Notes: a model not told the origin generated them from the sequence alone. A DNA stretch of 64,000 nt from Candidatus Multivorans sp. (GCA_965247095.1 OZ251997.1:2912001-2976000), one strand, 5' to 3'; positions 1,778-13,650 are shown, counted from the first letter of the stretch. Made by a program: numbers and translations.

Positions 1778-2887
1778 TCAGTCGCAGCCCTCGCGGGTCT
1801 CCTCGATCAGGCCGTCGACGACGGCGTTCAGGTCGCCCTCTTCGGCGCGGCGCAACTGGCGGTCGGCGCTGGTGCCCTCGGCGAGGATCGTGTGGACGTA
1901 CTCGGCTTCCTTGCGGATGCCGAGTTCGTCCAGCACGTCGTCGACGAACTCGAGCAACTCCAGGGTCAGGAAGCGCAGCGGGACCTCCTCGGCCTTGCCG
2001 AAGTCGATCATCTTGCCGTCGATGCCGTAGCGCATGGCCCGCCACTTGTTCTCGTAGAGCAGGTGCCGGGGGTACCGGCGCCAGGCCTGGTTGTCGCGGC
2101 GCAGGCGGATCAGCTTGCCGACGATCGCCATGAACAACGCGGTCAGGCAGAGCGCCTCCTCGATCTTCGTGCAGACGTCGCAGACCCGGAACTCGATGGT
2201 CGGGAACTTGGGGTGCGGCCGGACGTCCCACCAGATCTGGGTCGGCTCCTCGATGCACTTCGTCTTCACGAGGACATTCACGAGGCGCTCGTACTCGGCG
2301 TAGGAACGGAACGAGGGCGGCAGGCCGGAGCGGGGCAGGCTTTCGAAGACCACCGAGCGATAAGACTTGAGCCCCGTCTTCCGCCCCTGCCAGAACGGTG
2401 AGCTAGTCGACAGGGCGAGCAGGTGGGGCAGGAAGTAGAGGGACTGGTCCATCACGTCGATCCGCAGATCCCGTTCCGGCACGCCGACGTGGACGTGCAT
2501 GCCGAAGATCAGCATGCGCCGCGCGACATCGCCGAAGCTCTCCTGCATCTTGATGTAGCGCTGGGCCTCGGTGACGTCCTGCTCCTGCCATGCGGAGAAC
2601 GGATGGCTGCTGGCGGCGGCGATGCACAGGCCGTTGTTGGCCGCCAGCTCGGCGACCCTTCGCCGCAGCCGGATCAGTTCCTGTCGCGCTTCGCCGATCG
2701 TCCTGCAGACCTCGCTGCCGACCTCGACCTGGCACTGGAGCTGCTCGGCCTTGATCTGCTCCTGGAGCACGATTTGACCCTGTTCCAGGAACTTCTGGAT
2801 GAAGGGCTTCAGTTCGCGGCTCTCCGGGTCGATGATCTGGTACTCCTCTTCGATGCCGATCGTGAGCTCGGGGAGCTTCGTCTTCAT
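1778..2887 (-). CDS. ybdK: Carboxylate-amine ligase (glutamate--cysteine ligase 2, YbdK family)
   Basis: TIGIEEEYQIID, GMHVHVG, WWDVRPHP, IEFRVCD and ENKWRAMRYG motifs. Confidence 0.9.
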   Translation of the reverse strand: MKTKLPELTIGIEEEYQIIDPESRELKPFIQKFLEQGQIVLQEQIKAEQLQCQVEVGSEVCRTIGEARQELIRLRRRVAELAANNGLCIAAASSHPFSAWQEQDVTEAQRYIKMQESFGDVARRMLIFGMHVHVGVPERDLRIDVMDQSLYFLPHLLALSTSSPFWQGRKTGLKSYRSVVFESLPRSGLPPSFRSYAEYERLVNVLVKTKCIEEPTQIWWDVRPHPKFPTIEFRVCDVCTKIEEALCLTALFMAIVGKLIRLRRDNQAWRRYPRHLLYENKWRAMRYGIDGKMIDFGKAEEVPLRFLTLELLEFVDDVLDELGIRKEAEYVHTILAEGTSADRQLRRAEEGDLNAVVDGLIEETREGCD

Positions 2888-2970
2888 GCGTCTTCTCCGG
2901 GAAAGGGGAAGCAGTTTCGTTGCGGGACCAATCAATCGTATCCGGCTGCTCTGATACCCTGCGCGCTGCC

Positions 2971-4758
2971 ATGAGCCGGCTCGCGACCACTGCCTCGCGT
3001 GCGCTCGCTCGCGGCCTGATTGCCGTTCTCGTTGCTGCCGCGGTCCTGCTTGGACCCGCCTGCGGAGGGACTGGGGGGGCGCCTTCAGACGACGCTTCCT
3101 CCTCGTCCTGGGACTTCTACGGTCGGGCAAAGGCAGCGGAGGGGCAGGACGGCATGGTCTCGAGCGGCCACGGTCTGGCGTCCGACACCGGCGCCCGTGT
3201 CCTGGAACGGGGCGGCAACGCGGTCGACGCCGCGGTCGCGGTGGGCTTTGCCCTGGCGGCGGCGCTGCCGGCGGCGGGGAACATCGGCGGCGGCGGCTTC
3301 CTGGTCTATCGGTCGAACGAGGGCGAGGTCCGGGCGCTCGACTACCGCGAGAAAGCGCCGGGGGCGGCGACCCGCGACATGTTCCTCGACGACGGCGGCC
3401 AGGTCGCGGAGAGCGCGGTGATCGGCCATCTTGCGGCCGGCGTGCCCGGATCCGTGGCCGGGTTGTGGGAGATGCACCAGCAGTACGGCTCCATGCCCTG
3501 GGCCGACCTGGTCGCGCCGGCGATCGAGTTGGCGCGCGGCCACGAGGTCGACGAGGTCCGGTCGCGGAGCCTGGCGTCGGCGGCCGAACGGCTCAACCGG
3601 TTCCCGGCCAGCGCCGAACAGTTCCTCCAGGGTGGCGAGGCGCCGGCGCCGGGGACGCTCCTGGAGCAGCCCGACCTGGCGGCGACCCTGACGGCGATCG
3701 CCGAGCAGGGACCGGACGGTTTCTACCGGGGCCCGGTCGCCGACCTGATCGTGGCCGAGATGGAGAAGGGCGGAGGCCTCATCTCGCATCAGGATCTCGC
3801 CGACTACGCGCCGGCCTGGCGGGCGCCGGTCGAGGTCGAGTACCGCGGCCACACGATCTACTCGATGCCGCCGGTCTCGTCCGGCGGTCTGACCCTGGGC
3901 CTGATCCTGAACGTGCTGGAAGGCTGGGATTCCCTGCCTCCGTTCGGCAGCGCCGAACTGATCCACCTGGAGGCCGAGACGATGCGACTCGCGTTCCGTG
4001 ACCGCAACACGTTGCTCGGCGACCCGGACTTCGTCGACGTGCCGCGGGCGCAGTTCGAGTCCCAGGACTACGCCGACGGGCTGCGGGTGGAGATCGATCC
4101 CGAGCAGGCAACGCCCCTGCCGCCCCTTGAGATCGCGCCGCCGGCTGAGAGCACCGAAACGACCCACTACTCCGTGGTCGATCGCTGGGGCAATGCGGCC
4201 TCGATCACCACGACGATCAACAGCGGCTACGGCAACGCGGTCGTCGTCACCGGCGCCGGGTTCCTGCTCAACAACGAGATGGACGACTTCGCCGCCTCGC
4301 CGGGCCAGCCGAACCAGTTCGGGCTGGTCGAGGGCGAGAACAACGCGATCGTCCCCGGCAAGCGAATGCTGTCGTCGATGACCCCGAGCATCGTCCTCGA
4401 CCCGGATGGCGATCTGATGATGGTCGTCGGCACGCCCGGTGGTCCGACGATCATCACCACCGTCTACCATGTGATCTCGAACGTGATCGACCACCGCATG
4501 ACCCTGCAGCAGGCGGTCGAGAGCCCGCGGGTGCATCATCAGGCGTGGCCCGACAAGATCTTCTACGAGCAGGGCGGCCTTTCCGCCGCGACACTCGAGG
4601 GTCTGGCCGCGCGCGGCCACGAACCGTTCGAACGCGGCTTGAGCGGCGACGTGTCGGCGATCCGCGTCAGGGAAGAGGCGCTCGTCGGTGTCGCCGATCC
4701 GCGGCGGGGAGGCGGCGTCAGCGCGCCGCGGGGAGACGCGCCCGCGGGAGTCGAGTGA
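2971..4758 (+). CDS. ggt: Gamma-glutamyltransferase
   Basis: GGNAVDAAVA, LDYREKAP, catalytic ETTHYSVVD, LNNEMDDF, PGKRMLSSMTP and GTPGG; N-terminal export signal. Confidence 0.95.
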   Translation: MSRLATTASRALARGLIAVLVAAAVLLGPACGGTGGAPSDDASSSSWDFYGRAKAAEGQDGMVSSGHGLASDTGARVLERGGNAVDAAVAVGFALAAALPAAGNIGGGGFLVYRSNEGEVRALDYREKAPGAATRDMFLDDGGQVAESAVIGHLAAGVPGSVAGLWEMHQQYGSMPWADLVAPAIELARGHEVDEVRSRSLASAAERLNRFPASAEQFLQGGEAPAPGTLLEQPDLAATLTAIAEQGPDGFYRGPVADLIVAEMEKGGGLISHQDLADYAPAWRAPVEVEYRGHTIYSMPPVSSGGLTLGLILNVLEGWDSLPPFGSAELIHLEAETMRLAFRDRNTLLGDPDFVDVPRAQFESQDYADGLRVEIDPEQATPLPPLEIAPPAESTETTHYSVVDRWGNAASITTTINSGYGNAVVVTGAGFLLNNEMDDFAASPGQPNQFGLVEGENNAIVPGKRMLSSMTPSIVLDPDGDLMMVVGTPGGPTIITTVYHVISNVIDHRMTLQQAVESPRVHHQAWPDKIFYEQGGLSAATLEGLAARGHEPFERGLSGDVSAIRVREEALVGVADPRRGGGVSAPRGDAPAGVE

Positions 4759-4768
4759 CGGGCCGCAC

Positions 4769-4831
4769 ATGAACGGCCGGCGCATCTTCGCCGCGGTGAC
4801 GTCACGTCGCGTCGGCATCGACATCTCATGA
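4769..4831 (+). repeat. Diverged tandem copy of the 5' end of the next gene, forming a 20-aa ORF
   Basis: 4769-4827 matches 4828-4886 at 48/59 nt. Encodes MNGRRIFAAVTSRRVGIDIS*; its TGA overlaps ATG 4828. Confidence 0.9.
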
Positions 4832-7800
4832 ACGGTCGGCGGATCTTCGCTGCGGTCACCGTAGGTCACCTCGGCATCGACATCTTCAACAGCATGGGGC
4901 CGGTGCTGCTGGCCTTCCTGAAGGCGCCGCTCGGCCTCAGCGTCACCCAGGTCGGCTTCGCTCTCGGTCTCTACCAGTTCCTGGCCGGCGCGACCCAGCC
5001 GGGGTTCGGCTGGGTAGTGGACCGCTTGGGCACCCGGTTCCTGGGGCCGGCAAGCGTGGCCGTCAACCTGGCCTGCATCGGCCTGGCGGTCGCCGCCGCC
5101 GACGCCTTTGGCAGCTACGCCCTGTTCCTGATTCCCTTCGCCATAGCGGCGGTGGCTTCCGGCGCGTTTCATCCGCTCGGCGTACTGCACGCCAGCACCG
5201 CGGATCTCTCGCGCTCATCTTTCTTCACGGCCGTGTTCTTTTTCTTCGGCCAGGTCGGGCTCGCCTGCGGACCGATGCTGGTCGGCTACGCGCTCGACCG
5301 CTCCGGTCTGACGGGCGTCTACTGGCTGTTGCTGGTGGTGGCGCCGGTTCCGCTCTTCATGGCCTTCGCGATGGGACCGCGGCGGCTCCACGAGCGGCGT
5401 TCGGAGTTGCTGCTCGAGGAAGAGGCGACGGCGGGAAACACGGGGCCGAGCGAACCCGCCCAGCCGGGTGTCATCGCGCTCCTGGCGCTGATCTTCGCGG
5501 GCCGCGCCTGGGTCTTCATCGGCACCCTCGTGTTCCTGCCGCTGCTGTTCAGACAGCAGGGTTGGAGCGGTCTCGAGCAGGGCGCGGTCGGCGGCCTGTT
5601 CACGCTCGGCGGCGCCATCTCAGCCATCGCTGCCGGCGCGCTCGTTGATCGTTGGGGCCGGCGCCTTGTGGTGTTCGTGCCCACCCTGCTCGGCGCCTTG
5701 CTGCTGGCGGTGCTGCCGGGGTCGGGAACCTGGGCGTTTGCGGTCGCCCTGGTGTGCGGCGCCCTGCTCGGGGCGCCCCACTCGGTCCTGATGGTCATGG
5801 CGCAGTCGCTCCTGCCCTGGCGGCGGGGCCTCGCTTCCGGCAGCGCACTCGGTTTCCTGTTCGCCATGGGCGCGGTGTCCAGTTCGGCCATCGGGTTTCT
5901 TGCCGAGCGCTTTGGGCTGGCTGAGGTGCTGCAGGTGGGTTCCGTGATCGGCGTGGCCGTGGCCTTTGCCTCCTTGCTGTTGCCCAGGGAGCGTCCGTCG
6001 CGTTTCGCCGCGGCGCCGGCGGTGTCGGCGGTTCTCGTCGTTGCGACCCTGGGCCTGACCTTGTTTGGGGCGCGCCCGGCCGCGGCGAGCCTGAATGGCG
6101 AGATCAACGGGCAGGTGCGTGACGTCGCGACGGACCTTCCGCTGGCCGGGGCCGAGATCAGGATCACCGGCGACCAGTTGTACAGCCCCCGGATCGTTCA
6201 CGCCGGGGACGGCGGCAGCTACCGTGCGCCCGGCCTGCCGCCGGGCGTCTACCACGTGGAGGCGACGGTGGACGGCTACGTCACCACCGTGGTGGAAAAC
6301 CTGGTTCTGGTCGTAGGCGGCGTTCTGCGGGTCGATTTCCAGATGCGGAGCGGCAGCGCCTCGATGCTCGAACTCGTCTCCTCGCCCCTGCTCGATGTGG
6401 TGACCGGCAGTGACGGGAATGTGCTCGCGGGCGACGATCTGCGGGAACTGCCGGGCAGTACCGCCGCCGTCAATCTCGATCTTGCCGCGGGTCTGGACCC
6501 GGCGGGCGGCGATCTCTCCGTCAACGGTTGGTCGCCGGGCTTCGCCACCTACCGGGTAGACGGCCAGGATCGCGTACTGCCGGGCCTTTCGGCGGCCGCC
6601 GTCGATCCGCGCTGGGTGGATCAGGTGCGGGTGCGTTCGATGGACTTCGCGGCGGCGATGGCCGGGCCGCACGTCGACGTGATCACGCGCTCGGGAGGGA
6701 CCGAGTGGAGTGTCAATGGCGGCTGGTCGGTGGTCGAACCGTTCGACACCGGGGAGCGGCCCGCGCTGCGTCTGCTGGGCGTGGAGCGGTTGCCCGCGGG
6801 TGGCGTCGATCGGAGGAGCGTGGATGGCGAGGAGGCGACCGTGTTCCTCGGCGGGCCACTGCGGGACAAGCGCGCCCGGGCCTTCGGCGGCTACTCGACG
6901 AGTCGCACGAGTGGGGAGGTGGAGCTCTTCGGCGCCGGTGCGCCGGTGACCTGGAAGGAGACGATCGAGCAGTCGGTGGGCAAGTTCGACTGGTGGGCCG
7001 GATCGGCCAGCAACCTGACTCTGAAGCACCATTCGGGATCGAGTGAGCTGGACGGCCGGAGGCCGGCGCTCCTGGTGCTTCCTTCGGCCGACGGGCGGGA
7101 GAACCGCCGGTCCACCGAGGAGACGACGAGCCTCAACGTCGAATGGGGAATCACGGACCGACTCTGGCTGCGAGTATTCGCGGGACGCTCGGACCAGCGG
7201 GGCCGCGAGGAGCCGTGGCAGGACGCCGGCGTCTACTTTGCGGCGCCTGCCGGAGGCCGCGCCGCGGGGTGGTACGAAGCTCGTCCCGCCGGCCTTGTCC
7301 GCCGAGCGGCGGAGCGCCGGAACTGGGCGGTCGAGCCGTCCTTCTTCCTGTTCGACCACACCCTGGAAGTGGGCGTGCAGAACTCCCGGGGAGACCTGGA
7401 GTTGGTCCGGTCCGACCATCCCGGAAGGCTGCTGGCGTTGCCCGGCGGGGCGCTACCGGAGTGGAGCGGCCGGCCCCTCGCGGCCACCGGTCTGCGGCAG
7501 GAGAAGCGTGCCCTCTACGTCCAGGACGCCTGGCGTCTGGCGGGTCCGTTCGACCGCCGCGTCACCCTCCACCTGGGTCTGCGTGCGGAGGAGGAGAGGA
7601 CCGGCCCGCTTGAGTTGGCTTTCGACGACCGCACGGAGCCGCGGCTCGGCTTTGTCTGGGATGTCGGCGGCCGCGGCAAGTGGAAGGTTTACGGCGGTGG
7701 GGCCTGGTCGCATGTCGACGCGTTCCGGTCGTTTGGCGGTCTGGCGGGGATCGACGCCGCGGGCGGTCTTGAGGCGGGCGATTTCTTCGGTTCCGGCCTC

Positions 7801-8766
7801 GACTTCGGCCGCGCTGCGGTGGATCCCGATCTGCGTCCAGGCCTCGTGCGGGAGGTGCAATTCGGTACCCGCTACCAGTTCCTGCCTGACGTGGTCATCT
7901 CGGCGCGCCTCGCCCGGCGCCGCCTTCGCGACGGCATTCGCCTGGTGCCCACCCTCGTTGACGGAGAGGTCGTGTCGACCCTGCTGACCCCCGGCCGCGG
8001 CGCCGGCCGCGCACCCTGGGGCGAGACCGGCGCCGACCTGCCGCGACTCGAGCAGGAGTGGTGGGGCGCCGAACTGAACGCGAACGTCGGTCTCAGCCCG
8101 GCCTGGCGCGTTCATCTCACCTACCTTTGGAGCCGGCTGACCGGCAACCACGAGGCCGGCGGCCTCGGGCTTCAGGCCCTCAGTGGGATGGACGTTCATC
8201 CGGGAGTGGCCGCGCTCGACCTCTGCTCGTCGCCGGTGCCCTGCGACGTCTTCGATGTGACCGATGAGAGCCGGCGTCTCGACGCCGACCGCGAGCACCA
8301 GCTCTCCGGCTGGCTCGTGCTGTCTCCCGGCGACCGGTTGTTGATGGCCCTCGTTTACCGCTTCCGCACCGGCGGGGCTTACGTGCCGCGGACCATGGCG
8401 GTACGCCTCGACGAGGCGAACCGCATCCTCAGCACCGGCCTCGCGCCGTTGCCTCGGAGTCCGGACACGCCGATCAAGAGCTCCGACCTCAAGCGCGCGG
8501 ACCTCTCCCTGACCTACCGCGTGCCGCTGCGCTCCAACGACCGGCGCCTGTCCCTGTTCGCCGAAGCCCTGAACGTCTTCGACCAGGACGCGGCGTCGGT
8601 GCTGTGGCCGCTCGCCTACCTCGATCCGGTACTGATCGGCTTTGGTCAGAGCGACCTGCTTGCCGCGGCGGCCGCGCAACAGGCGAGACCGGACCTCCGT
8701 GAGTCCCGGCCGGCTGCGTTCCCGGACAGCCGGCGGGTGCGTGCCGGGTTGCGGTTGCAGTTCTGA
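4828..8766 (+). CDS. Fusion of an MFS transporter (Fsr-like, aa 1-~388), an internal signal peptide (aa ~389-420) and an Oar-like TonB-dependent receptor
   Basis: MFS motif A in both halves (GWVVDRLGTR, GALVDRWGRR); then GEINGQVRD...LPLAGAEI...GLPPGVYHVEATVDGY (carboxypeptidase-regulatory-like domain), VDVITRSGG, ALYVQDAWRL...VTLHLGLR, EPRLGFVWD and the C-terminal RVRAGLRLQF barrel signature. No in-frame stop. Confidence 0.85.
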   Translation: MNGRRIFAAVTVGHLGIDIFNSMGPVLLAFLKAPLGLSVTQVGFALGLYQFLAGATQPGFGWVVDRLGTRFLGPASVAVNLACIGLAVAAADAFGSYALFLIPFAIAAVASGAFHPLGVLHASTADLSRSSFFTAVFFFFGQVGLACGPMLVGYALDRSGLTGVYWLLLVVAPVPLFMAFAMGPRRLHERRSELLLEEEATAGNTGPSEPAQPGVIALLALIFAGRAWVFIGTLVFLPLLFRQQGWSGLEQGAVGGLFTLGGAISAIAAGALVDRWGRRLVVFVPTLLGALLLAVLPGSGTWAFAVALVCGALLGAPHSVLMVMAQSLLPWRRGLASGSALGFLFAMGAVSSSAIGFLAERFGLAEVLQVGSVIGVAVAFASLLLPRERPSRFAAAPAVSAVLVVATLGLTLFGARPAAASLNGEINGQVRDVATDLPLAGAEIRITGDQLYSPRIVHAGDGGSYRAPGLPPGVYHVEATVDGYVTTVVENLVLVVGGVLRVDFQMRSGSASMLELVSSPLLDVVTGSDGNVLAGDDLRELPGSTAAVNLDLAAGLDPAGGDLSVNGWSPGFATYRVDGQDRVLPGLSAAAVDPRWVDQVRVRSMDFAAAMAGPHVDVITRSGGTEWSVNGGWSVVEPFDTGERPALRLLGVERLPAGGVDRRSVDGEEATVFLGGPLRDKRARAFGGYSTSRTSGEVELFGAGAPVTWKETIEQSVGKFDWWAGSASNLTLKHHSGSSELDGRRPALLVLPSADGRENRRSTEETTSLNVEWGITDRLWLRVFAGRSDQRGREEPWQDAGVYFAAPAGGRAAGWYEARPAGLVRRAAERRNWAVEPSFFLFDHTLEVGVQNSRGDLELVRSDHPGRLLALPGGALPEWSGRPLAATGLRQEKRALYVQDAWRLAGPFDRRVTLHLGLRAEEERTGPLELAFDDRTEPRLGFVWDVGGRGKWKVYGGGAWSHVDAFRSFGGLAGIDAAGGLEAGDFFGSGLDFGRAAVDPDLRPGLVREVQFGTRYQFLPDVVISARLARRRLRDGIRLVPTLVDGEVVSTLLTPGRGAGRAPWGETGADLPRLEQEWWGAELNANVGLSPAWRVHLTYLWSRLTGNHEAGGLGLQALSGMDVHPGVAALDLCSSPVPCDVFDVTDESRRLDADREHQLSGWLVLSPGDRLLMALVYRFRTGGAYVPRTMAVRLDEANRILSTGLAPLPRSPDTPIKSSDLKRADLSLTYRVPLRSNDRRLSLFAEALNVFDQDAASVLWPLAYLDPVLIGFGQSDLLAAAAAQQARPDLRESRPAAFPDSRRVRAGLRLQF

Positions 8767-9302
8767 TGTCGGCTCAGGCGCAGGGAGACCGCAAGGTCAT
8801 CATCATCGCCGGGCCCAACGGGGCCGGGAAGACCACGTTCGCCTTGGAGTACCTGCCGTATGAGCCGGCCTGTCCGATCTTCGTCAACGCCGACCTCATT
8901 GCGGCGGGCCTGTCGCCGCTCCAGCCGGCAGCGGCGCTGTTTCGAGCCGGCCGTCTGATGCTGCAGGAGATTGACGATCACGCGAACCACGGCCGGAGCT
9001 TCGCCTTCGAGACGACGCTCGCTGGTCTAGGCTATGTACGGAGGATTCGCCGGTGGCAGGGCATGGGCTACGTGGTCAAGTTGATCTACCTGCCGCTCGC
9101 GACTCCCGAGGAGGCGATCAAGCGTGTGGAGCAGCGGGTGAAGCAAGGCGGCCACGGCATTCCTGAAGACATCATCCGGCGGCGCTTCGACCGGAGTTTG
9201 AAGAACTTCCGAACCGTGTATTGCGACATCGTTGACATCTGGCAGGTCCTCAACCGACGTGGTTACGATCTCGTCGTTGTGGAGGAGGGGGACAACCGAT
9301 GA
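8766..9302 (+). CDS. Zeta-toxin-like P-loop ATPase/kinase (COG4185-like)
   Basis: IIAGPNGAGKTT Walker A, FVNADLIA, SFAFETTL and RVKQGGHGIPE. Confidence 0.85.
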   Translation: MSAQAQGDRKVIIIAGPNGAGKTTFALEYLPYEPACPIFVNADLIAAGLSPLQPAAALFRAGRLMLQEIDDHANHGRSFAFETTLAGLGYVRRIRRWQGMGYVVKLIYLPLATPEEAIKRVEQRVKQGGHGIPEDIIRRRFDRSLKNFRTVYCDIVDIWQVLNRRGYDLVVVEEGDNR

Positions 9303-9508
9303 GAGCGCAGAAGCGGCAGCTTCCTGTCTCACGACTTGACGATCCTGACATGCAGGCTGCACCCGCCGCTATGGAGCGCGCCCTGAGGCGTGCCCACAAG
9401 GTCGCGCACCAACACGGCACCACCGTTCTCGTGGTGGAGAGCGGCAAGCTGGTCGAAATCGAACCGGATCCGGCGATGTACGAAGACAAGTCGGGGCTCA
9501 GACCATGA
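9299..9508 (+). CDS. Small partner protein of the zeta-like ATPase (putative antitoxin)
   Basis: 69 aa, ATGA overlap with the upstream gene; ALRRAHKVAHQHGTTVLVVESGKLVEI. Confidence 0.6.
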   Translation: MRAQKRQLPVSRLDDPDMQAAPAAMERALRRAHKVAHQHGTTVLVVESGKLVEIEPDPAMYEDKSGLRP

Positions 9509-9512
9509 ATGA

Positions 9513-9550
9513 CCGGCGCGAAGCGCCGGCCTCCGGAAGTTCTGCCGCGC
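9513..9550. repeat. Palindromic dispersed repeat shared with the element at 43324-43414
   Basis: ccggcgcgaagcgccggcctccggaagttctgccgcgc is a near reverse-complement copy of about 43327-43364. Confidence 0.7.
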
Positions 9551-9581
9551 CAGGCCACGTGCGAAGGATCCAGCCGAGGGA

Positions 9582-9926
9582 ATGCGACAACCGATGAAAG
9601 CGGAGGACCGCCTCGTTGCGGCCATGGTGGACGCCATCGTTGCCGAAGTCGATCCGGAACGGGTGATTCTCTTCGGCTCGCGGGCGCGAGGGGAGGAGGG
9701 GGAGAAGTCGGACGTGGACCTCGTCGTGATCGAGGCCGAGCCGTTCGGCGAGAGCAGGAGTCGGCACGCGGAAATGGTGCGCATTGATGTCGCGCTCGCG
9801 AAGTTCAGGGTGCCTGCGGACGTCCTCGTCTACAGCGAAGACGAAGTCGAGTACTGGCGCGATTCGATCAACCACGTGCTGGCGCGTGCACTGCGGGAGG
9901 GGCGAGCCCTCTATGAGCGACCCTAA
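9582..9926 (+). CDS. Minimal nucleotidyltransferase (MNT) antitoxin
   Basis: VILFGSRARG...SDVDLVVI motif; possible alternative start at 9594. Confidence 0.85.
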   Translation: MRQPMKAEDRLVAAMVDAIVAEVDPERVILFGSRARGEEGEKSDVDLVVIEAEPFGESRSRHAEMVRIDVALAKFRVPADVLVYSEDEVEYWRDSINHVLARALREGRALYERP

Positions 9927-10158
9927 GTGCGCTCGTCCGATCACCCACAACATCGCCCAACTGCTCGACGCTCTGCAAGCGCATGAGATGGAGGCCGTGG
10001 GCTACCGGGATCTGATTGCCCTCAATCCGTATGCGGTTCGGCTCCGCTATGTGGGGCAAGAGCCCGAGACGCCGGGAGTCGATCGTGAAGCGGTCGTTGG
10101 GCGAATCGAGTCGCTCATGGAGCGGGTGCAGTGGCAACTGAGTCGCTCGCTCCAATAG
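9913..10158 (+). pseudogene. HEPN-domain toxin with probable internal deletion
   Basis: MSDPKCAR joins directly to PITHNIAQLL...LNPYAVRLRY. Only 81 aa; lacks the FHAQQAxEK-type helix expected in MNT-associated HEPN proteins. Confidence 0.65.
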
Positions 10159-10168
10159 AGCCTGGCGC

Positions 10169-10328
10169 CAAGGTCATCATCATCGCCGGGCCCAACGGCG
10201 CCGGGAAGACCACGTTCGCCCTGGAGTACCTGCCCTATGAACCGGTCATCAGGCGGCGGTTCGACCGGAGCTTGAAGAACTTGGTGGAGAACGGCGAGAT
10301 GGTGGAGATCGAGCCGGCACCGAACTGA
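10169..10328 (+). pseudogene. Collapsed copy of the zeta-like ATPase and its partner gene
   Basis: Three joined segments matching 8792-8868, 9172-9208 and about 9433-9472. Confidence 0.85.
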
Positions 10329-10338
10329 GCGGTTGCCG

Positions 10339-10725
10339 CTACCACGAGATCCGCACGGGATACTGAGAAACCAGCCTGTCCGGCGTTACCAGCGTCATGC
10401 CGTGCTCGATCGCCTGGCAGATCAGGAGGCGGTCGAAGGGGTCCTTGTGGAGGGGCGGGAGACGTTGTAGCTGCAGAGCGCTCGCTTCATCAAAGGGGAG
10501 GCTCTCAAAGCCGTGGCGCCTGCGCTGTTCGGGCACGAAGAGCTGAGGGTCCTGTGGCAACGGCAATCGGCCGAGGCCGTGTTTCACGGCGATTTCCCAA
10601 GCCGACGATGCGCTGAGATATACGGTGAACGCCGGGTCGGACACGGATCTTCGGACGGTCGCCGGCAGCCTGCGGTCATCCAGGCACCACCAGAGGAAGG
10701 TGCAGGTGTCGAGTAGCAGCTTCAC
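10339..10725 (-). CDS. vapC: PIN-domain VapC toxin
   Basis: MKLLLDTCTFLWW, SAWEIAVK and HKDPFDRLLICQA; GTG start overlaps the antitoxin stop. Confidence 0.9.
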   Translation of the reverse strand: MKLLLDTCTFLWWCLDDRRLPATVRRSVSDPAFTVYLSASSAWEIAVKHGLGRLPLPQDPQLFVPEQRRRHGFESLPFDEASALQLQRLPPLHKDPFDRLLICQAIEHGMTLVTPDRLVSQYPVRISW

Positions 10726-10979
10726 TCGTCGGGGAAGACCGGTCCGTTCTCGAAGGCTTCGATGAAGTCGTCCGGCAGCGGATCGAAGAACGACTCCGGG
10801 ATCGTGAACTGTCCGCGGCACAGTCCAATGGGTCGGGGCTTCTTGCGCTCCCGCGGCAGCGGCCGGATCTCGGCGACCGGCTTGTTGCGACGGCAGAGGA
10901 TGATCGTCTCGCCTTCCTTGAGTTCGGCGATGTGGTGGGACAGGTGAGTCTTCGCTTCGTGCATGTTGAGTCGCTTCAT
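10722..10979 (-). CDS. Phd/YefM family antitoxin
   Basis: LNMHEAKTHLS...GETIILCRRNKPVAEI...FFDPLP. Confidence 0.9.
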   Translation of the reverse strand: MKRLNMHEAKTHLSHHIAELKEGETIILCRRNKPVAEIRPLPRERKKPRPIGLCRGQFTIPESFFDPLPDDFIEAFENGPVFPDE

Positions 10980-11085: not shown

Positions 11086-13650
11086 CTACACCAGTTCGCT
11101 CAGCCGCCGGAGCGCCGCCAGCAGGTCCGGCTGCTCCGTCAGTACGCCGCGCAGCGGGTCGGTCTTGAGCTTCTTGAGCCGCTCCGGCACCGAGTGGATG
11201 TTGTGGTCGCGCAGGTCGAGGCCGGGTTTGACCTCGGACCAGCGGAGCGGTGTGGACACCGGCGCCGCGGGGAGCGGGCGGACGCTGAAGGGGGCGACCA
11301 GGAGGCGGCCGCGGCCGTTCTGGACGAAGTCGATGTAGACCTTGCCGTCGCGACGTTCGGGGTTGCGGGTGATGGTGGCGATGTCGGGCAACTGGCGGCA
11401 GATGATCTGGGCGATGAGTTGGCCGAGGCTGCGGGACTGTTCGAAGGTGCAGGCGCCGCCGAGCGGCAGGAGGACGTGCAGGCCGCTCGAGCCGCTGGTC
11501 TTGACGAAGCTGGGCAGCTTGATCTTCCGGCACAGGCGGCGGATGGCCAGGGCGATCTCGATCACGTCCTCGAACGGTGCGTCCTTGGGGTCAAGGTCGA
11601 GGATGCACCAGTCGGGCTGGCCGAGCTGGTGGCGCCGGCTGGACCACACGTGGAGGACGATCGCGCCCAGGTTGGCGACGTAGATCAGGCTCTCCCGGTC
11701 CTGGCAAACGAAGTACTCGACTTCCTTGTCCGTCCGGGGATTGGTCAGCTTGACCCTCTGCAGCCAGTTCGGTGCGAAGTCGGGCGCGTTTTTCTGGAAG
11801 AACGACTTGCCGTGGATCCCGTCCGGATAACGGGTCATCACCAGCGGACGGTCGGTGAGGTAGAGCTGCATCGCGTCGGCGATGGCGGCGTAGAAGTCGA
11901 TCAGGTCGCCCTTCGTGTAGCCCTCGACCGGCCAGAAGACCTTGGAGGTGTTCGTCACTTCGACGCGACGCTCCGGCGGCGCCGGCGGGGTGGCCCCGGG
12001 GGCTCGCGGCCCGGCGCCGCGCACGCAGTCCTCGATGGGCTTGTCATCGCGTAGGCGCAGAAAGACCGGGTGCCGGAGCATGCCGTGGGGCGTCCACTCC
12101 TTGTAGCGGACCTCGCAGATCAGCTCCGGGTCCGGCTCGACCCAGGTCTGGTCTTCGATCCGGCCGCCCATCAGGTCTCCCGCGGTCAGCTCGTCGCCCG
12201 CGGGCGACCGGCAGGGCGGCGCCTCAAGCTGGGCCAGGGAGAGCCGTTCGGTCAGTTCGCTGAGTGCGGCGTCGCTTAAGCCGGTGCCGACGCGCCCGGC
12301 GTAGACGAGCCCGGCAGCCTCGGCGTCCCACACCGCGAGGTGGAGCGAGCCGAAACCGACCCGGCTGCCCTTGGGCGGCGACATGCCGACGATCGCGAAG
12401 TCGGCGGTCCGTTCGGTTCGCAGCTTCACCCAGGACGACGAGCGGCGGCCGACGTAGCGGGAGTCGCCGTCCTTGGCCATCGCGCCCTCGAGGCCCATGG
12501 CCGCCACCTGCTCGAAGAAGGCCTCGCCCTGTTCCTCGATGTGGTCCGAGTAGCGGAGCGGTCCGGCCGGGGACAGGACCTTCGCCAGCAGGGCCTTCCG
12601 CTCCACGAGGGGCAGCGACCTCAGGTCCGACCCCTCGAAGGCGACGAGATCGAAGGCGAACAGGGTCGCGGGCCGGCGCACGGCGGCCTGTTCGATGTCG
12701 ACCGGGCGGCTGAGCAGGGCCCGCGTCTGCAGTCTGGCGAAGCTCGGTCTGCCGCCTGAGTCGAGCGCGACGACCTCGCCGTCCAGCACCAGGGACCGCA
12801 CCGGCAGGGCCCGCAGGGCGCGGGTCAGTTCGGGGTAGAGCGCGGTCACGTCGCCGCCGTTCCGGTAGCGCAGGAAGACGCTGCCGCCTTCCTTGGCCGC
12901 CACCAGCCGGTAGCCGTCGTACTTCAGCTCGTAGATCCAGCCCTGGCGCGAGAAGGGCCGGGCGCCGGTGACCGCCAGCATCAGCGGCAGAGACCGCGGA
13001 TCGACCCGGCGGCTGCGCGCGGCCGAGTCGGCGACGTCGGCGCGAACCTCCTCGATCCGCTCGCATCCGTCGCGCAGTTCCTCGACGGTGAGACCCGAGA
13101 GCACGGACTGGGGCGGCAGGTCATCGTCGCTGTCGCCGCCATCCGGCCGCGCGGCGGCGTCGGGCTTCTTCATCAGCAGCCACTGGTTCCCGTCGTCCTG
13201 CTGGCGCGGGTCTCTGATGCGGAACAGGGTCCAGACACCGCGCAGCTTGTAGCCGTGCAGCTCGAACAGGAGCTTGCCGGCTTCCATGCCGGCGACCGGA
13301 TCCTCGAGCGGCCTCCAGCGGCCGCTGTCCCAGACGATCATCGCGCCGGCGCCGTAGTTGCCGGCGGGGATCGATCCTTCGAAGTCGGCGTACTCCAGCG
13401 GGTGGTCCTCGGTGGCCACCGCCAGGCGCTTGACCTCCGGGTCGAGACTGGGTCCGCGCGGCACGGCCCAGGACTTGAGCGTGCCTTCGAGTTCCAGGCG
13501 CAGGTCGAAGTGGACCCGGCGTGCCGCGTGCTTCTGGACCACGAAGCGGCCGCCGCCTGTCCCCGTCGCAGGACCGAAGGGTTCTGGCGTCGCCTCGCTC
13601 GATCGCTTGCGGCGGTAGGCCTCGAGATTGCCGCTCGGCATCCGCTGCAT
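11086..13650 (-). CDS. ligD: DNA ligase D (phosphoesterase-ligase-polymerase)
   Basis: FVVQKHAARRVHFDLRLE (PE domain), ELKYDGYR (ligase motif I), RYPDGI, LDLDP and KTSGSSGLH (polymerase domain). Confidence 0.95.
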   Translation of the reverse strand: MQRMPSGNLEAYRRKRSSEATPEPFGPATGTGGGRFVVQKHAARRVHFDLRLELEGTLKSWAVPRGPSLDPEVKRLAVATEDHPLEYADFEGSIPAGNYGAGAMIVWDSGRWRPLEDPVAGMEAGKLLFELHGYKLRGVWTLFRIRDPRQQDDGNQWLLMKKPDAAARPDGGDSDDDLPPQSVLSGLTVEELRDGCERIEEVRADVADSAARSRRVDPRSLPLMLAVTGARPFSRQGWIYELKYDGYRLVAAKEGGSVFLRYRNGGDVTALYPELTRALRALPVRSLVLDGEVVALDSGGRPSFARLQTRALLSRPVDIEQAAVRRPATLFAFDLVAFEGSDLRSLPLVERKALLAKVLSPAGPLRYSDHIEEQGEAFFEQVAAMGLEGAMAKDGDSRYVGRRSSSWVKLRTERTADFAIVGMSPPKGSRVGFGSLHLAVWDAEAAGLVYAGRVGTGLSDAALSELTERLSLAQLEAPPCRSPAGDELTAGDLMGGRIEDQTWVEPDPELICEVRYKEWTPHGMLRHPVFLRLRDDKPIEDCVRGAGPRAPGATPPAPPERRVEVTNTSKVFWPVEGYTKGDLIDFYAAIADAMQLYLTDRPLVMTRYPDGIHGKSFFQKNAPDFAPNWLQRVKLTNPRTDKEVEYFVCQDRESLIYVANLGAIVLHVWSSRRHQLGQPDWCILDLDPKDAPFEDVIEIALAIRRLCRKIKLPSFVKTSGSSGLHVLLPLGGACTFEQSRSLGQLIAQIICRQLPDIATITRNPERRDGKVYIDFVQNGRGRLLVAPFSVRPLPAAPVSTPLRWSEVKPGLDLRDHNIHSVPERLKKLKTDPLRGVLTEQPDLLAALRRLSELV

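Follow-up and report, generated by a model that had tools for sequence, protein, structure and literature searches.

A Permease and an Outer-Membrane-Type Receptor in One Reading Frame

A single open reading frame (ORF) at 4828..8766 on the + strand of a 64,000-nucleotide (nt) stretch of Candidatus Multivorans sp., from an uncultured lineage of Acidobacteriota (GCA_965247095.1 OZ251997.1:2912001-2976000, hereafter the window, with positions counted from its first letter) encodes a complete permease of the major facilitator superfamily (MFS) and, behind it, a protein with the domains of an outer-membrane TonB-dependent receptor. We hold it as hardly open to doubt that this fusion is real, conserved, and selected. 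Judging from the residues at the junction of the two halves, signal peptidase I probably cuts the chain at A420|S421, yielding an inner-membrane permease and an outer-membrane receptor.

The window sits in a one-contig genome of 4.6 Mb, and the ORF opens with an ATG and encodes 1312 amino acids (aa). An earlier note on this DNA had claimed a stop-free 1312-aa frame at 4828-8766, a complete MFS protein with motif A in both halves, then a carboxypeptidase-regulatory-like domain and a barrel ending in RLQF. The ORF listing and the translation of the window bear out the frame. For the permease, the Pfam MFS_1 match (PF07690; two stretches, E 2.9e-24, 86.1 bits vs. a cut-off of 33.4), the hydropathy profile, and the motif segments D65-R70 and D274-R279 agree. 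Motif A is a G-x-x-x-D-R-x-G-R-R-like sequence following helix 2 and helix 8 of MFS proteins. Its two copies read G61-W-V-V-D65-R-L-G-T-R70 and V273-D-R-W-G-R-R279, and their D and R positions are invariant or nearly so in a multiple alignment. Together with the hydropathy, they delineate a standard 12-helix permease made of two six-helix halves and ending at L385. The rest of the claimed order likewise holds, with matches to CarboxypepD_reg (PF13620; aa 426-507, E 1.5e-13) and TonB_dep_Rec_b-barrel (PF00593; aa 759-1250, E 4.1e-10, 40.5 bits vs. a cut-off of 27) and the C-terminal RLQF in place. A search of NCBIfam gave sub-threshold matches only.

The segments of the gene are listed below with the evidence for each, including AlphaFold2 (AF2) models, the ratio of nonsynonymous to synonymous substitution rates (dN/dS), and statistics from 37 distinct fused junction sequences:

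4828..5982, + strand: MFS permease half, aa 1-385, 12 helices, motif A after helix 2 and helix 8 (Pfam, hydropathy, AF2, dN/dS 0.17)
5983..6006, + strand: predicted cytoplasmic positive loop P386-F393 (R387, R389, R392), would-be n-region of an internal signal (net charge in the 37 junctions)
6007..6066, + strand: 13th hydrophobic helix, aa 394-413, putative h-region (Kyte-Doolittle hydropathy; hydrophobic in the 37 junctions)
6067..6087, + strand: G414-A420, the putative c-region, which includes P417 and A418-x-A420; signal peptidase I is predicted to cut behind nt 6087, A420|S421 (residue pattern of the 37 junctions)
6088..6348, + strand: predicted mature receptor N-terminus (SLNGEINGQVR...) and CarboxypepD_reg extension (PF13620, invariant LNGEI, AF2)
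6349..6804, + strand: TonB-box-like stretch SMLELVSSPLLDV and predicted plug domain (AF2 plug inside the barrel, Foldseek whole-chain alignment; no Pfam Plug match)
6805..8766, + strand: 22-strand beta-barrel with C-terminal RLQF, stop codon included (PF00593, AF2, Foldseek)

Conservation of the Fusion

Among 24 genus-mates, 20 carry the equivalent of query residues 1-1312 in one stop-free frame, at 70-86% identity, and the junction is in frame in 23. Three of these are broken away from an intact junction, by contig ends (G008), a frameshift near the 3' end (G012), and a run of N (G017). Only one genus-mate, G011, has its two halves in different frames. Three additional genus-mates have open frames of 1319-1354 aa. 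We also built a profile of standalone MFS relatives and scanned it against species-representative genomes, which gave 80 loci. In 35 of them the permease has an orthologous receptor behind it, fused to it in 34 and split from it in one (L066, whose junction is the same as that of G011). The related public loci are 63-93% identical and are assigned to Candidatus Multivorans, Multivoraceae, Thermoanaerobaculia, or Holophagales; the 34 fused proteins measure 1306-1332 aa, apart from one that leaves the contig end and one of 1419 aa produced by a frameshift near the 3' end. A search of related genomes for the same architecture, as the earlier note had proposed, thus recovers it in 23 of 24 genus-mates and 34 of 35 public loci, and the opposite outcome that it had named, two separate genes in all relatives, is not what these loci contain.

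The protein database holds 35 fused clusters of ~1300 aa (66-99% identity), of which the named ones are called "MFS transporter" of Holophagales or Acidobacteriota. Because proteins of 1300 aa carry this name in public annotation, their receptor half is invisible to annotation-based surveys. When the MFS half was searched among proteins of 721-2296 aa, the same fused family was found, together with one 1029-aa protein covering 24% of the half. Outside the genus, the MFS half was matched at E <= 1e-20 in one of 72 genomes (33% identity), and receptor matches were at the level of paralogues only.

Long open frames arise by chance in high-GC genomes, and the junction of G011 differs from that of its relatives by one base, located in a run of C; both facts could be cited for an error of assembly or sequencing in which a base or a stop was missed and two ordinary genes were joined. 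The probability of such an error is negligible, as the 37 distinct junctions come from many independent assemblies and are all in frame, and it is in this one frame that the protein sequence is conserved, before the junction as well as after it.

The Junction as an Internal Signal Peptide

Behind the permease, the protein continues with the loop P386-R-E-R-P-S-R-F393, the hydrophobic stretch 394-413 (Kyte-Doolittle 2.08 over 19 residues), and G-A-R-P-A418-A-A420 | S421-L-N-G-E-I. The basic PRERPSR, the hydrophobic core, and the RPAAA|S at nt 6079-6090 on which the earlier note relied are all present, and its coordinates for AAA-S are correct. A signal of this kind beginning at residue 386, behind a complete 12-helix permease, would be internal and not a classical N-terminal signal peptide.

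Substrates of signal peptidase I are described as having n-, h-, and c-regions, small residues at −1 and −3, a solvent-exposed residue at −2, and a helix-breaking residue between −4 and −6 (PMC9360617). In the fused junctions, position −1 is A in 37/37 and position −3 is A in 35 and V in 2, while position −2 is free and holds any of eight residues (S, A, W, M, H, F, Y, or R). Proline is found at −4 in 32 junctions and at −6 in 29, and is absent from +1, which is G, Q, S, or R in all of them. The following residues +2 to +6 (LNGEI) are invariant. The sequence of the h-region varies with its hydrophobicity kept, and the net charge of the loop is +1 to +4 in every junction. Furthermore, standalone receptor homologues of 950-1050 aa begin with signal peptides, and A418-A420 lines up with their A-x-A|Q sites. 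Across relatives, the pattern therefore matches the rule for a putative signal peptidase I site, and the A-x-A site proposed earlier gains support both from the −1/−3 pattern, which holds in 37/37, and from this alignment.

Folds and Selection on Both Halves

An AF2 model of aa 417-1312, built with 108 aligned sequences, has a mean predicted local distance difference test score (pLDDT) of 81.4 and a predicted template modeling score (pTM) of 0.87. It consists of a beta-sandwich, a plug-like domain, and a barrel, and the beta-sandwich of the CarboxypepD_reg extension exceeds a pLDDT of 90. The 50 best matches of this model in the PDB by Foldseek are all TonB-dependent transporters (E 9.5e-33 to ~2e-25), including PqqU, YddB, FusA, FpvA, FepA, SusC, and RagA. 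Among these 50, the template modeling score (TM-score) by target is 0.47-0.72, 828-1064 columns are aligned, and the aligned span includes the plug of the targets. A second model of the N-terminal 520 aa is confident for the permease, with pLDDT > 90 over most MFS helices, and for the beta-sandwich. Residues 390-421 are modeled between them as a helix of pLDDT < 50, unpacked against the permease, which is the usual appearance of signal peptides in such models.

A C-terminal aromatic residue serves as the beta-signal for the beta-barrel assembly machinery (BAM). The window protein ends in F, as do 21 of 21 full-length relatives. The TonB-box region, (A/S)-L-(D/E)-L-V-SSPLLDV, aligns with E-x-V-x-V-T...P-x-I-D-V of the standalone homologues, and the receptor is likely to be TonB-dependent. 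Of the machinery involved, the same genome carries BamA, a pair of signal peptidase I genes, and nine above-threshold matches to TonB_C.

Purifying selection acts on both halves. From 21 full-length genes (209-210 pairs), we obtained dN/dS values of 0.17 for the permease half and 0.22 for the receptor half, so that the relaxed selection on the receptor named beforehand as speaking against a working fusion is not observed. Within the receptor, dN/dS is 0.21 for CarboxypepD_reg, 0.23 for the plug region, and 0.20 for the barrel, and it is 0.47 at the junction (aa 386-416). The synonymous rate (dS) of the junction, 0.71, is not depressed relative to the other parts (0.54-0.76), and there is thus no sign of a hidden nucleotide-level element there.

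These data bear on the possibility that the chain stays intact or is degraded, so that the receptor never reaches the outer membrane and the two genes were joined by a recent accident, neutral or mildly harmful. Our statements on membrane topology, cleavage, the destination of each half, and the substrate are inferences; for the cleavage, this status, together with the low AF2 confidence at 390-421 and the missing Pfam Plug match, leaves some room for an uncut or useless product. We nevertheless consider it very improbable. The receptor evolves under purifying selection as a working gene does, is modeled confidently with a plug-like domain and a barrel, and retains its C-terminal F, and the fusion persists over a clade with dS of ~0.55-0.75. 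An uncut chain could not place the barrel in the outer membrane, since the first folded periplasmic domain begins only seven residues behind helix 13. Finally, −1 is always A and −3 A or V while −2 is free.

Proposed Mechanism

We propose that the ribosome would make a single 1312-aa chain, of which the 12 MFS helices would insert into the inner membrane so that helix 12 ends on the cytoplasmic side. The positive loop (386-393) and helix 13 (394-413) would then act as an internal in-to-out signal, threading the next ~890 residues through SecYEG, and signal peptidase I would cut after A418-A-A420. The permease would retain helix 13 as a C-terminal tail. The freed CarboxypepD_reg-plug-barrel protein, with its C-terminal F, would be passed to BAM and become a TonB-dependent outer-membrane transporter. 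Each chain made would thereby yield one transporter for the inner membrane and one for the outer, in a strict 1:1 ratio. The earlier note had suggested such a polyprotein with a 13th helix as signal, and the conserved fusion, the selection on both halves, and the −1/−3 pattern support it as the probable reading, the cut itself being deduced from sequence.

In a more elaborate version, the permease would be a targeting leader: the chain would be directed to the membrane by the signal recognition particle and the receptor exported cotranslationally, not posttranslationally. After the cut, the helix-13 tail and the N-terminal extension of the receptor would stay in contact, forming a dedicated trans-envelope line for the uptake, or export, of one substrate. 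We rate this extension as a long shot.

Points against Cleavage and the Question of an Internal Start

Several observations weigh against the reading that one chain is made and cut into two transporters. Arginine at −5 is uncommon in the c-regions of signal peptides, and it is present in 23 of the 37 junctions. On the receptor side, Pfam Plug (PF07715) has no match at E <= 0.1 on the 1312-aa protein and the TonB-box region is two residues shorter than in the standalone homologues, which leaves TonB dependence short of established. On the permease side, standalone relatives (~395-436 aa, 34-60% identity, in other Acidobacteriota and Chloroflexota) are named FSR-family fosmidomycin-resistance-like MFS proteins, and the MFS relatives bear an efflux-type family label. 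The halves of G011 lie in different frames, so the receptor may work unfused.

The other points concern initiation at the junction. The codon at position −28, F393 in the window, is CTG in 27 junctions, TTG in 4, GTG in 2, TTC in 1 (the window), and another codon in 3, and a Shine-Dalgarno (SD)-like 4-mer stands 5-16 nt upstream of it in 21 of the 37. We read this codon as a relic of the old start codon of the receptor, and weak internal initiation may occur there in some species. In the window, in-frame TTG codons are present at L383 (nt 5974-5976) and L385 (nt 5980-5982) and an in-frame GTG at V399 (nt 6022-6024), with an SD-like AGGGAG at 5986-5991. The earlier statement that no ATG with a well-spaced ribosome-binding site occurs at the junction was right insofar as the window has no in-frame ATG there, and incomplete in that these TTG and GTG codons and the AGGGAG exist. 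None of them is conserved in relatives.

It could accordingly be argued that the receptor is mainly initiated at the junction, at the CTG, TTG, or GTG relic behind a GGAG-like motif or at the TTG codons 383 and 385 of the window, and is exported by an ordinary N-terminal signal peptide, the fusion being a tolerated by-product. In addition to the codons and SD-like motifs above, this explanation can point to G011, where CTGA takes the position of the ATGA, TTGA, or GTGA of relatives outside the fused clade. We find it unlikely. No stop ends the permease, hence each ribosome that translates the permease continues into the receptor, and the fused chain must be made regardless of other starts. The old-start codon is CTT in L080 and TTC in the window, where initiation at this codon is impossible. 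In 27 of the 37 junctions, the interval that opens with the last three codons of helix 12 and closes at −24 is free of in-frame ATG, GTG, and TTG codons, so that no canonical start would preserve the whole h-region; in four there is none up to −13, and the SD-like motif is missing in 16. The independent internal start that had been named as the alternative outcome therefore has no conserved counterpart. The dS of the junction is not reduced, unlike the expectation for an embedded ribosome site, and a frame kept in 34 of 35 loci is unexpected for a useless by-product. A promoter scan of 2500-10500, uninformative with 0.3 sites expected, found 0 promoter-like sites and so lends an internal start no help; the same scan gave four terminator-like sites vs. 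3.6 expected, none at the junction. Synthesis as one chain followed by cleavage therefore keeps our preference.

Unfused Relatives and Origin of the Fusion

The distant set comprises 14 Acidobacteriota loci with an unfused permease. In five of them (L095, L079, L037, L082, and L044), the permease gene is directly followed by a separate receptor gene of the CarboxypepD_reg/TonB-barrel type, whose product has a signal peptide of its own. The permeases of these pairs are 48-58% identical to the fused ones, while their receptors, of ~720-860 aa, are 27-37% identical over the N-terminal 100-280 residues only. The stop of the permease and the start of the receptor overlap in L095 (ATGA), L079 (TTGA), and L037 (GTGA), which implies translational coupling in these three loci. 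In L082 the receptor starts 17 nt after the permease, behind AGGAGG, and in L044 after 65 nt. In a tree of 44 receptors, the five partners and one standalone protein are sister to the fused receptors, apart from 24 other homologues, with a support of 100 by the Shimodaira-Hasegawa-like approximate likelihood ratio test (SH-aLRT); the branches are long, and this placement calls for some caution. In the permease tree, the fused clade also has an SH-aLRT support of 100, and its neighbors include unfused pairs.

Given relatives with an overlapping stop and start, the fusion looks like a one-base frame change that internalized the signal peptide of the receptor. In the simplest history suggested by these sequences, an ancestral coupled pair would have had its frames merged by a one-base change at the stop/start overlap, and the old start would have become the Leu codon at −28.

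The split genus-mate G011 (locus L013) bears on this history. Its permease ends at a TGA that overlaps a CTG opening the receptor frame (CTGA), behind GGAG, exactly where the outside relatives carry ATGA, TTGA, or GTGA. Its junction is one base shorter than in the fused relatives, within a run of C. The tail of its permease has no positive charges, the permease branch is long (0.63), and the public gene call of its receptor (P0036, 868 aa) begins downstream of the signal peptide. The best trees of both halves nest G011 within the fused clade (SH-aLRT 98-100); a position outside all fused forms is not rejected by approximately unbiased tests (p 0.376 for the receptor, 0.128 for the MFS half). 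G011 may have been split secondarily, may retain the ancestral arrangement, or may owe its difference to a single miscalled base in the run of C.

We also observed that the two halves have different histories. The receptor half of the window (6088-8763) is 92-93% identical to those of L002 and L043, while the permease half (4828-5982) is 70-72% identical; the comparison concerns these loci, L080, and the proteins P0016 and P0020. P0020 and P0016 are 90-91% identical in the permease half and 72-73% over residues 300-800. The trees of the two halves disagree, in line with these unequal identities, and together they suggest recombination with a breakpoint near the junction.

Gene Neighborhood and Possible Substrate

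The features flanking the fusion gene in the window are as follows:

1778..3130, − strand: glutamate-cysteine ligase of the GCS2 type, divergent, conserved neighbor (Pfam GCS2, E 1.8e-61)
2971..4758, + strand: gamma-glutamyltranspeptidase gene (ggt), N-terminal export signal MSRLATTASRALARGLIAVLVAAAVLLGPAC (Pfam G_glu_transpept, E 3.2e-166)
4769..4831, + strand: 20-codon upstream ORF MNGRRIFAAVTSRRVGIDIS*, whose TGA overlaps the main ATG (ATGA; sequence inspection)
8766..9302, + strand: zeta-toxin/AAA_33-like kinase ORF, whose ATG overlaps the fusion stop (TGATG; Pfam)

The earlier note placed the fusion behind ggt, and it lies directly behind this gene in the window and in all 35 loci with an orthologous receptor. 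The ggt stop (4756-4758) is 69 nt upstream of the fusion ATG, a distance of 10 nt in relatives without the short upstream ORF. The ggt and GCS2 genes stand next to each other in 35/35 of these loci, and 8 of the 14 distant loci likewise have the two side by side in the vicinity of the unfused permease. In two of the distant loci, ggt and the permease are separated by a gene for a GAF-GGDEF diguanylate cyclase (L082, 4788-5930; L095, 4672-5874). The fused clade lacks this gene, and there ggt and the fusion are immediate neighbors. With an exported gamma-glutamyltranspeptidase (GGT) and GCS2 as conserved neighbors, the substrate may be a gamma-glutamyl compound; the neighborhood hints at a role in the traffic of such compounds, which we regard as possible and rather doubtful. 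One Oar-type receptor has been reported to be necessary for protein secretion (PMC6434023). As a separate observation, the N-terminus of GGT (window 2971-3070, +) ends in LLGPAC-GG and may be a lipoprotein-type signal, not one for signal peptidase I.

The upstream ORF is a partial tandem copy of the first codons of the fusion gene itself, shifted by 59 nt and read in another frame. It was found in 7 of 24 loci and, by eye, in 12 of 35; besides the window, it is present in L009, L014 (two copies), L016, L021, L022, and L024. Its length and overlap are kept, and the second half of the peptide varies between species. It may be a leader, a coupling device, or a recombination scar at the 5' end. 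The zeta-toxin-like ORF is probably not a part of the system, as it lies downstream of the fusion in only 3 of the 35 loci (L041, L043, and L073). Beyond it are a PIN-domain ORF (10339-10821, −) and a LigD gene (11086-13650, −).

Significance

By the usual view, an outer-membrane beta-barrel starts out as a precursor of its own, with an N-terminal signal, and is exported after translation. Here the barrel protein forms the C-terminal 890 residues of a polytopic inner-membrane protein, an arrangement conserved clade-wide. If the chain is cut as the residue pattern indicates, a barrel that emerges behind 12 membrane helices is within the capacity of Sec, signal peptidase I, and BAM, and the family would exemplify, in nature, transporters for the two membranes that are necessarily made 1:1. 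It would also provide a Rosetta-stone link, the permease and the receptor sharing a substrate. Acidobacteriota have hundreds of orphan TonB-dependent receptors for which such links are hard to obtain. From the unfused relatives it can be seen how a single base change could make a signal peptide internal.

Comparison with Known Systems

Receptors are paired with single-subunit MFS-type permeases in the operons of FptA/FptX and RhtA/RhtX and in the Xanthomonas sucrose locus. There the two genes stand side by side and act on the same substrate, and their products are separate proteins, unlike the fusion described here. The closest relatives with two polypeptides are the five unfused pairs of Acidobacteriota, which likewise have an MFS gene followed by a sister receptor with the GGT and GCS2 genes upstream. 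They differ by the ordinary signal peptide of their receptors, which are shorter and divergent.

With CarboxypepD_reg before the predicted plug, the receptor half falls into the Oar-type subclass. Oar-type transporters, such as Oar of Myxococcus xanthus, consist of a signal, a CarboxypepD_reg extension, a plug, and a 22-strand barrel (PMC6434023), the order that is also predicted for the receptor half. The present protein differs by the permease in front, the lack of a Pfam Plug match, and the shortened TonB-box region. In that survey, 34,893 TonB-dependent transporters are sorted into five N-terminal architectures, and none of these has a permease ahead (PMC6434023). We found no described MFS-receptor fusion, and no bacterial polyprotein supplying both the inner and the outer membrane, in the literature searched, which covered few subscription journals.

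Like the fusion, TraG of the F plasmid begins with a polytopic inner-membrane domain and continues into a large periplasmic one. A signal peptidase I site within the chain, behind Ala451, has been proposed to give TraG*; the C-terminal domain seems to need anchoring, and its release is doubtful (PMC7555446). TraG differs from the fusion by its unrelated sequence and by having no outer-membrane barrel.

The closest precedent is FbcH, a cytochrome b-c1 fusion in which a polytopic inner-membrane protein and an exported protein share one frame. In work by Thony-Meyer, its internal signal was reportedly cleaved to give two mature proteins. Such fusions are documented in Bradyrhizobiaceae (PMC4986455). 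FbcH has no sequence relationship to the protein described here, and both of its products stay in the inner membrane as parts of one complex, whereas the second product of the Multivorans fusion would be a beta-barrel that leaves the inner membrane, crosses the periplasm, and is assembled by BAM. The general device, a polytopic and an exported protein split at an internal signal, is therefore known, and its version joining an MFS permease to a receptor is newly seen here.

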